This document shows positions 153 through 1,790 of a DNA stretch of 34,867 bases, one piece after another. The notes beneath the pieces were generated by a model. The model saw only the letters and a list, made by a program, of their open reading frames with translations, was not told the origin of the DNA and ran no database searches. Source of the DNA: a virus. Its lineage: Duplodnaviria; Heunggongvirae; Uroviricota; Caudoviricetes. Made by a program: the position numbers and the translations under genes. Numbering within the stretch: the first letter of the stretch is position 1; each line of letters opens with the position of its first letter. Location: the IMG/VR virus record IMGVR_UViG_2684622580_000006, one strand, 5' to 3'.

Positions 153-1745
153 TTACTCGATCCCTTTACTACGCAGGTAATCTTCGTAATTACCGCTAAA
201 GTCGATCACGCGTTCCGGGGTGATTTCCAGAATGCGGGTCGCCAGGGAGCTTACGAACTCACGGTCGTGTGAAACAAAGATCAGCGTGCCCTGATACAGT
301 TCCAGCGCCATGTTCAGTGACTCGATGGATTCCATATCCAGGTGGTTGGTCGGTTCGTCCATGATCAGAATGTTCGGCTTCTGCATCATTAACTTACCAA
401 ACAGCATCCGCCCTTTTTCCCCACCGGAAAGCACTTTAGCTGGCTTTTTGATGTCGTCCTGGCTGAACAGCAAACGACCGAGAATGCTGCGTACCGCCTG
501 CTCGTCATCGCCTTCCTGCTTCCACTGACTCATCCATTCGAACACGGTCAGATCATTTTCAAACTCATATTCGTGGTCCTGGGCGTAGTAACCAATGCGC
601 GCGTTTTCAGACCATTTTACGGTGCCGCTGTCCGGTTGCAGATCGCCCACCAGCGTTTTCAGCAGCGTTGATTTACCGACGCCGTTGGTACCCAGTACCG
701 CAAGTTTTTCACCGACCTCCAGCAGCAGGTTGAGATTTTTAAACAGTGGACCGTTATCAAACCCTTTGGTCAGACCTTCCACTTCCAGCGCGTTACGGAA
801 CAGTTTCTTATCCTGTTCAAAACGGATGAACGGGTTCTGACGGCTGGAGGCTTTCACCTCTTCCAGTTTGATTTTATCAATCTGGCGCGCGCGCGAAGTT
901 GCCTGGCGAGATTTCGAGGCGTTGGCGCTAAAGCGGCTAACGAAAGATTGCAACTCAGCAATCTGCGCTTTCTTCTTGGCGTTATCGGCCAGCAGACGTT
1001 CACGCGCCTGGGTCGCCGCCGTCATGTACTCATCGTAGTTACCCGGATAAACGCGCAGCTCGCCGTAATCCAGATCCGCCATGTGGGTACAGACCATGTT
1101 AAGGAAGTGACGGTCGTGCGAGATGATGATCATGGTGCTGTCACGCTCGTTCAGCACCTGTTCCAGCCAGCGAATGGTGTCGATGTCGAGGTTGTTGGTC
1201 GGTTCGTCGAGCAGGAGAATATCCGGATCAGCAAACAGCGCCTGCGCCAGAAGCACACGCAGCTTCCAGCCAGGAGCAACTTCACTCATCGGGCCGTAGT
1301 GCTGTTCCACTGGAATTCCCACGCCAAGCAACAGTTCACCGGCGCGAGCTTCCGCAGAGTAACCGTCCATTTCGCCGTATTTCACTTCCAGATCGGCCAC
1401 TTTATAGCCGTCTTCTTCACTCATTTCCGGCAAAGCATAGATGCGGTCGCGCTCCTGCTTCACTTCCCACAACTCTTTATGCCCCATGATCACCGTATCC
1501 AGCACAGTGAACTCTTCAAAGGCAAACTGATCCTGACGCAGCTTACCAATGCGCTCGTTGGGATCGAGGGAAACGTTACCCAGCGTCGGCTCAAGGTCGC
1601 CGCCGAGAATCTTCATAAAGGTGGATTTACCACTACCGTTCGCGCCAATCAGGCCGTAACGGTTGCCGCCGCCGAATTTGACGGAAATGTTTTCAAACAA
1701 CGGCTTACTGCCGAACTGCATGGTGATATTGTTGCTAAGAAGCAA
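153..1745 (-). CDS. ybiT: ABC-F family ATPase YbiT (two ABC cassettes, no transmembrane domain)
   Basis: 530-aa ORF. Walker [10 protein letters not shown] and GTNGVGKST, Walker [10 protein letters not shown] and ILIMDEPTN, signature LSGGEKGR. Matches my recollection of E. coli YbiT along its length. GC-rich codon usage unlike the rest of the window. Track start is TTG at 1743-1745; first in-frame ATG is codon 9 (1719-1721). Confidence 0.93.
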
Positions 1746-1790
1746 AATTGATACTCTCTGCTAAGTGATTGAAAGGATTAGATTATGCAA
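1700..1790. other. Host/prophage junction (attL-type site for a serine integrase), exact crossover not resolvable
   Basis: Abrupt change from GC-rich ybiT coding sequence to AT-rich sequence within the first ~8 ybiT codons. The recombinase ATG is 39 bp beyond the ybiT ORF start. Confidence 0.45.

Follow-up and report, generated by a model that had tools for sequence, protein, structure and literature searches.

Integration of a serine-recombinase prophage in the 5' coding end of ybiT and the probable dual role of its attachment half-site

Introduction

What becomes of a chromosomal gene when a prophage enters its first codons is the question raised by IMG/VR virus record IMGVR_UViG_2684622580_000006, a Caudoviricetes sequence of 34,867 nucleotides that is referred to below, at its full length, as the window. 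Near its left end, the host gene ybiT runs up to the divergently oriented gene of a serine recombinase. A preliminary description of this DNA, made from the sequence alone, placed a prophage junction inside the 5' coding end of ybiT and regarded the first codons of the gene and its TTG as probably phage derived. The analysis described here upholds that reading: the junction is almost certainly the left attachment site (attL) of a serine-recombinase prophage in ybiT, and the first codons of the gene come from the phage. With less assurance, but still probably, the phage-derived start is a selected feature, one half of the phage attachment site (attP) serving both the recombinase and, as a surrogate start, the host gene.

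The attachment site in ybiT

The chimeric ybiT coding sequence occupies positions 153 to 1745 of the minus strand (530 codons plus stop in the list of open reading frames [ORFs]) and begins with a TTG at 1745-1743. Its 5' end reads TTG CTT CTT AGC AAC AAT ATC ACC ATG, encoding MLLSNNITM, and the first in-frame ATG is codon 9 (1721-1719), as had been noted previously. Upstream, the frame is limited by an in-frame TAG read from the sequence (1761-1763, minus strand), and there is no alternative start codon between this TAG and the TTG. The product is an ABC-F family ATPase with two ABC_tran domains and an ABC_tran_Xtn domain in Pfam, and the identical sequence carries the name ybiT in RefSeq (WP_000927249.1). 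In Escherichia coli K-12, the gene starts with GTG TTA GTT TCC AGT AAC GTC ACC ATG, encoding MLVSSNVTM (the DNA there reads ...CTGCATGGTGAcgttactggaaactaacac), and the 530-residue YbiT chain of PDB entry 9njf has the same N terminus as the K-12 protein. The window YbiT differs from that of K-12 only by V3L, S5N, and V7I; when it is aligned over its full length to the chain deposited as 9njf, two E-to-Q changes are the only additional differences. The ybiT frame does, as the preliminary description had it, enter the AT-rich block in frame as MLLSNNIT, with the first residues replaced and the reading frame kept. Across the junction, the GC content falls from ∼0.52 to 0.58 in ybiT to 0.32 to 0.45 in intervals lying wholly to its right, the latter being the range found in the prophage.

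Positions 1400 to 2100 were searched against 5426 complete E. coli genomes, of which 5423 matched the ybiT side. The prophage-free records shown, an evenly spaced sample of the ranking, all match as far as base 1726 (29/29) and diverge at 1727; none of them carries the sequence of the window across 1700-1790. Ordinary host variation was rejected as the source of the junction, the divergence of the prophage-free genomes falling exactly at 1727.

Alignment with the uninterrupted ybiT locus defined the bacterial attachment site (attB) and a core, GTGA (1723-1726), which is the sole stretch common to attB and attP and must contain the crossover; the first base of attL that differs from attB, i.e., the first phage-specific base, is 1727. 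The right attachment site (attR) was located 583 bp past the window end in the sister genome NZ_AP027790.1, which carries the same prophage. It lies at about 800-890 of locus L003, with the core GT at 866-867, and reads ...cgttgctttgaaaaagcataGTGAcgttactggaaactaacac, followed by the ybiT-ldtB intergenic region and ldtB. The three sites are attB CATgGTGAcgtt (K-12), attL CATgGTGAtatt (window), and attR CATaGTGAcgtt (NZ_AP027790.1). In attL (1700-1750), the left half is that of attB and covers ybiT codons 8 to 15, and the right half is that of attP; the extent of the site was set at ∼25 bp on each side of the center, as inferred by analogy with other serine integrase sites. Of the about eight codons previously attributed to the phage, codons 1 to 6 and the first base of codon 7 are indeed phage derived; codon 8 (ACC) and part of codon 7 belong to the shared core.

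The attP sequence was reconstructed by joining the left part of attR to the right part of attL for four lineages, namely, the window type, MS 115-1, PSS-15, and O111:H- 11128. In all four, it forms an imperfect inverted repeat, with the half-site consensus CTTTGAAACTATATT adjoining a central GT. Centering on this GT gives 11 to 13 symmetric positions out of 20, compared with 2 to 9 out of 20 for other centers; TG and GA were rejected as central dinucleotides because of their much poorer dyad symmetry. By this measure, the GT at 1723-1724, within ybiT codon 8, is the probable crossover dinucleotide. As judged from these alignments, the site has the anatomy expected for a serine integrase, being short and showing little identity between attB and attP beyond the core.

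The recombinase gene (int, 1785-3290, plus strand) encodes a 501-amino-acid large serine recombinase, the prophage integrase, recognized by Pfam as a Resolvase domain (PF00239, residues 8-163, E = 3e-21) followed by a Recombinase domain (PF07508, residues 192-284, E = 3e-14). It matches the PHROG 95 integrase family over residues 8-469 (E = 5e-74). The Y-x-R-x-S motif with the nucleophilic serine is found at residues 11-19 (YIRFSSKKQ), and the protein combines the catalytic domain, the following Recombinase domain, and a length within the ∼450- to 700-amino-acid range of large serine recombinases. No zinc-ribbon domain was matched in Pfam at an E value of ≤0.01; the translation contains a Cys/His-rich stretch (HSCGG...HVCANARDGKC) and then a heptad-like region. 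In comparisons with solved structures, the sole match was a weak one (E ∼1e-4) to the catalytic domain of the phiC31 integrase. A Shine-Dalgarno-like AAGGA, read from the sequence, precedes the ATG by 7 nucleotides (nt) (1773-1777, plus strand). The ATG of int at 1785 is, as described earlier, divergent from the start of ybiT, and 39 bp (1746-1784) separate the two starts.

Recurrence of the junction

A related recombinase is found at the ybiT site in 60 of the 5426 complete E. coli genomes. Nucleotide identity to the window recombinase is 100% in four of these relatives, 92% in two, 86% in one, and ∼72% in the remaining 53. Outside E. coli, recombinase relatives with 74 to 75% amino acid identity adjoin ybiT in Enterobacter chuandaensis and Leclercia adecarboxylata, and the same junction is present in 12 metagenome contigs with several different ybiT backgrounds.

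In the genome of O111:H- 11128 (NC_013364.1; L014 38823-47861), which belongs to the ∼72% group and was the only member of that group examined over the full length of its element, the element is only ∼9 kb long. It encodes a DNA methyltransferase, a small serine recombinase, an HNH endonuclease, and a helix-turn-helix protein and lacks phage structural genes. By its gene content, one and the same attachment module appears to move unrelated cargo, a 34-kb phage in one case and an ∼9-kb element in the other.

The phage-borne start of ybiT

The segment from 1727 to 1745 (minus strand) supplies the TTG, codons 2 to 6, and base 1 of codon 7 of the chimeric gene (MLLSNNI) and doubles as the inner portion of the attP half-site proximal to int. 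This phage arm matches attB at 9 of its 19 bases, and the peptide MLLSNNI stands in place of MLVSSNV. Half of the 10 mismatches are synonymous (TTA/CTT for Leu, TCC/AGC for Ser, and AAC/AAT for Asn); one converts GTG to TTG, that is, a start codon to a start codon, and the other four result in the replacements V to L, S to N, and V to I.

This arrangement is conserved across lineages and host genera. In a sample of 25 genuine attL junctions, including the window copy and loci from E. coli, Enterobacter, Leclercia, and metagenomes, the in-frame TTG and the open frame are kept in every case, and the chimeric ybiT is each time a complete in-frame ORF, as is expected of a site that replaces the end of a gene. 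Six distinct arm sequences encode only LLSNNI, LLCNNI, or LLCNNV. Among the changes between lineages, CTT to CTC, AAT to AAC, and the two-base change CTT to TTG are all silent; the rest are S/C and I/V exchanges.

The sequence that is being replaced is itself conserved. Across the Enterobacterales, the native YbiT N terminus follows the pattern L[VS][TS][SN]N[VI]T, and residues 3 to 8 can be aligned with the paralog YheS; in Leclercia, the native protein has LVTSNVT and the lysogen has LLCNNIT. Judging by these alignments, the native N terminus is under constraint. An AlphaFold model of the lysogen YbiT had a mean predicted local distance difference test score of 53, below 50 at the N terminus, from an alignment that was shallow and too uniform, and was not used.

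The arrangement of the site suggests how the insertion may work. The large serine recombinase would insert a tailed prophage of ∼33.7 kb in the 5' coding end of ybiT, ∼20 bases into the gene, by recombination at the GT in codon 8, within the 4-bp GTGA. The int-proximal half of attP would act as a recombinase half-site and, on the opposite strand, as a coding patch, with a TTG and six and a third codons giving a conservative imitation of the native N terminus (MLLSNNI for MLVSSNV). The same half probably also brings a weak ribosome-binding region. Integration would in this way exchange the start of ybiT for a phage-borne surrogate rather than truncate the gene; the start codon, ribosome-binding site, and promoter region native to ybiT go to attR, where they face two small phage accessory genes. 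The surrogate has probably been kept by selection so that YbiT is made, and the TTG is probably used for initiation.

Translation and transcription signals at attL

Immediately beyond the TTG lies the block AATTGATACTCTCT(G) (1746-1760), a candidate weak ribosome-binding region for the chimeric gene. The minus strand just upstream of the TTG (1759-1746) reads AGAGAGTATCAATT, with a candidate Shine-Dalgarno sequence 8 nt from the TTG; in the native gene, AGGA is located 7 nt from the GTG. The first 14 bases of the block are invariant in all lineages, save for one A/G change in Leclercia. This invariance is partly built in, because the two collection scans that yielded 15 of the loci, and the listing script, required AATTGRTACTCTCT; independent tests of it come from only nine junctions (the window, E. 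coli genomes, Enterobacter, and Leclercia). Positions 1761-1784 diverge between lineages. Conservation of attP is asymmetric, the right arm being invariant to +37 and the left arm diverging beyond about −16, which suggests some additional function for the right arm. The conserved block could be the ribosome-binding region of ybiT; promoter or operator elements of int are equally possible, and the block might also belong to the outer attP site.

Promoters of the sigma-70 type were sought with a built-in scan requiring at least 9 of 12 positions and with a relaxed one (at least 8 of 12) applied to attL, attP, attR, and attB. The relaxed scan revealed no sigma-70-like site on either strand of attL, and it also missed any native ybiT promoter, which makes it too insensitive for the question of a ybiT or int promoter. 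Weak plus-strand candidates (8/12) were seen in the arm of attP that is parted from int on integration, and in the O111 lineage, two promoter candidates span the core. According to the preliminary description, the junction leaves almost no room for an int promoter in the integrated state. This was overstated: ∼60 bp of phage DNA (1725-1784) precede the ATG of int, which is enough for a compact promoter and a leader. Reconstitution of an int promoter solely on the excised circle, as envisaged in the same description, is possible.

Selection or by-product of site recognition

The most serious alternative, considered unlikely, is that the surrogate N terminus is not selected. The arm would then resemble ybiT as a consequence of half-site recognition or of the capture of an ancestral ybiT 5' end by imprecise excision; in the lysogen, ybiT would be silent for lack of a promoter or the protein truncated from Met9, an outcome that would be similarly unlikely. 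Both arms of attP are ∼50% identical to the matching arms of attB (left, 10/20, counted by hand; right, 9/19), irrespective of coding, as this alternative would have it.

Several further observations weigh against a selected surrogate, some of them being what the alternative would predict. The similarity of the attP and attB arms partly reflects their recognition by one and the same recombinase, which places the conserved arm under a second constraint that is not fully separable from coding, and the 19-bp arm offers few independent substitutions. Initiation would rely on a TTG and on a weak candidate Shine-Dalgarno sequence (GAGAG). The stricter promoter scan found no site on the minus strand as far as base 3500 and none on the plus strand upstream of int; within 180 bp of phage DNA, the relaxed scan detected nothing resembling a promoter directed at ybiT. 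RefSeq sometimes places the start at ATG-9, giving a 522-amino-acid model on junction DNA identical over 140 bp to that of a 530-amino-acid model. Finally, an exact-pattern scan of IMG/VR with the predicted attP junction returned no free attP.

The resemblance of the arm to the start of ybiT can be compared with chance expectation. The criterion was a start codon at the required position, an open frame, and a BLOSUM62 score at least as high as the observed value of 19. None of 100,000 random or shuffled arms satisfied it, and the probability was 4e-5 for arms with 9/19 identities at random positions. With the matched positions fixed and all alternative mismatching bases enumerated, it was 0.002; in other words, even when the recognition-related identities are granted, only 0.2% of the alternative arms do as well in start codon, open frame, and similarity. 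Chance resemblance is, on these figures, unlikely. The opposite attP arm, under the same recognition constraint, provides an internal control, and it nevertheless contains an in-frame stop, TAG, when read in the ybiT frame in three of the four lineages. The changes between lineages are mostly synonymous or conservative, and the residues that would be lost by starting at Met9 are conserved across genera and align with paralogs, both of which speak against an unselected arm. The dyad is broken in each of the four lineages at right-arm positions +6 and +10. Were the right arm fully symmetric, codon 6 would read TAT and codon 4 would read AGA or the stop TGA. This detail is no more than suggestive of a coding constraint, since attB itself has these bases at the two positions. 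Taken with the conservation of the arm, these comparisons indicate that coding, in addition to binding, very probably constrains the int-proximal half-site of attP.

As for the two RefSeq start models, the 530-amino-acid version (TTG) is found in NC_013364.1 and the 522-amino-acid version (ATG-9) in NZ_CP147099.1; the junction DNA of the two genomes is identical across the 140 bp compared. Annotators should note that in such lysogens ybiT begins in phage DNA and that the RefSeq models for a single junction sequence disagree.

The displaced native 5' end at attR

The displacement of the native ybiT promoter region and ribosome-binding site, claimed in the preliminary description, is seen in NZ_AP027790.1, where they lie ∼33.7 kb away at attR, beside ldtB. 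There, the native sequence (upstream region, Shine-Dalgarno sequence, GTG, and seven codons) leads into a chimeric ORF of 23 codons (MLVSSNVTMLFQSNDFYVNLELI and stop, by hand translation). In the attR arm of the window lineage, M, F, and S are in register with YbiT residues 9, 11, and 13; the three other lineages have a stop there.

Two small accessory ORFs occupy the right end of the prophage, one of 118 amino acids (34511-34867, minus strand, from the ORF list) and a second of 148 amino acids just past the window end (L003 280-726, minus strand). Neither has a match in Pfam, PHROG, or PADLOC. Both read away from attR, which puts the displaced promoter, ribosome-binding site, and first codons of ybiT upstream of them, and both are absent from the related sister prophages of MS 115-1 and PSS-15. 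Their position suggests that they may be read from the displaced host promoter, in the integrated state only.

This layout invites a regulatory explanation, in which ybiT is put under phage control or turned down and its native promoter is taken over by the accessory genes at attR. The rebuilt ORF would then only let the phage set the level of expression, and excision would restore the wiring. As an account of the site, this must be regarded as improbable, and the last-mentioned part of it is no less so. The native start and upstream region at attR do face two minus-strand ORFs that are missing in sister prophages; in the ∼9-kb O111 element, the gene adjoining attR has the same orientation, and on the circle, int and the accessory genes would be divergent across attP. 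However, this support is purely positional, weak phage promoter-like sites (8/12) also precede the accessory genes, and MS 115-1 and PSS-15 have no gene in the accessory position. Reciprocal rewiring, with the translation factor gene ybiT under signals of the phage site and the promoter, start, and first seven codons of the host gene driving phage accessory genes, is likewise a doubtful proposition. If it did occur, the 40-bp site would be under three constraints, those of recombinase binding, coding for a host N terminus, and translation/transcription signals, and the dosage of YbiT would either reflect the lysogenic state or feed into it.

The prophage body

The remainder of the window is the genome of a tailed phage. 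The prophage extends from 1725 to 34867 and 583 bp further to attR, ∼33.7 kb in all. PHROG matches in it include the large and small terminase subunits, portal, major head protein with protease, tail fibers, and tape measure; the set of packaging, head, and tail genes between attL and attR is complete, as expected of a temperate tailed prophage. When 22 kb of it (window 1727-24000) were compared by megablast with 50,697 phage records, a single match was obtained, of 740 bp at 75% identity.

Searches with degenerate right-arm patterns in IMG/VR and metagenome contigs recovered attL forms only, plus one chance match (L019). The absence of attP from these collections does not mean that the phage is inactive, and its competence for excision is putative. 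No candidate recombination directionality factor was identified.

Several other features of the prophage deserve mention. At ∼38% GC, it is far more AT-rich than its E. coli host. The 658-amino-acid head protein (18054-20030, plus strand) matches both major-head and head-maturation-protease PHROG families, which suggests a fused protease-capsid gene. The ORF adjoining int (3449-4186, plus strand; 245 amino acids) matches only PHROG 30303, a family with no function assigned in PHROG, and has no sequence match in Pfam, PADLOC, or PDB; by eye, its STS and E-K-E motifs recall ADP-ribosyltransferases, a resemblance that is unconfirmed. In the four genomes with a 100% identical integrase (NZ_CP062211.1, NZ_CP112988.1, NZ_AP027790.1, and NZ_CP159209.1), the prophages are all longer than the window copy, in three of them by 1336 or 2672 bp, which are multiples of 1336, and in one by 2879 bp, which is not. 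In one of the four, around window 4215-4862, a hypothetical gene is shortened and an IS3-family transposase follows it ∼0.5 kb downstream. The window prophage represents a version free of insertion sequences that is absent from the complete E. coli collection.

Related integration systems

It has long been established that integrating elements can replace the end of a gene, and the ybiT prophage introduces no new biological principle. Phage 21 and the element e14 integrate in icd, and their attP carries a replacement for the displaced end of the gene, as in Campbell's "insertion sites within genes." As in ybiT, the insertion falls near the end of a coding sequence and brings a nonidentical but functionally equivalent end that leaves the host ORF intact. 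In contrast to the ybiT prophage, which has a large serine recombinase, a 4-bp core, and a 5' target, phage 21 and e14 use tyrosine integrases, long segments of identity, and the 3' end. Because the 5' end is replaced in ybiT, it falls to the phage to provide a start codon and a ribosome-binding site as well and, somehow, transcription.

Elements with large serine recombinases are also found in ORFs, examples being Listeria phage A118 in comK, skin in sigK, and Bxb1 in groEL1. Likewise, SPbeta is inserted in spsM (PMC5499854), and phiJoe and the SCO2603 elements lie 74 bp from a radical-SAM gene's end, near its 3' end, where the authors suggest only that function may survive (PMC5311408). With these elements, the ybiT prophage shares the class of enzyme, short dyad-symmetric attachment sites with a central dinucleotide, low identity between attB and attP, and an intragenic target; with phiJoe, it also shares the use of one attachment site and integrase module with very different cargo. 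The difference is that A118, SPbeta, and skin interrupt their gene until excision, whereas the attP half-site of the ybiT prophage encodes a conservative N terminus with a start codon.

There are prophages of Streptococcus pyogenes that insert at gene 5' ends and cut the genes off from their promoters. The 5' position, the duplicated or replaced coding start, and the displaced native promoter are as in ybiT, but these phages belong to another host clade, have tyrosine integrases, and duplicate identical segments. In mycobacteriophage BPs, immunity depends on integration, attP lying inside the repressor gene. An intragenic crossover that alters expression between the integrated and circular states is common to BPs and, putatively, to the ybiT prophage; the altered gene is that of the phage in BPs and that of the host here.

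What is particular to the ybiT site is a 5' substitute that includes the start codon and resides within a serine-integrase half-site sharing only four bases with attB. The literature searched contained no paper linking ybiT to a phage or integrase attachment site, and the prophage is, apparently, a tidy and previously undescribed example of a known phage strategy.

Significance

The analysis provides an attB/attP pair with its 4-bp core and likely crossover dinucleotide for a family of serine integrases of the Enterobacteriaceae, one that in sequence lies far from all structurally characterized integrases. It indicates that a recombinase with almost no identity between its attB and attP can enter an apparently important gene, the reading frame being kept by a coding patch in attP, and makes the ybiT attP half-site an example in which overlapping constraints on a very short piece of DNA can be tested.

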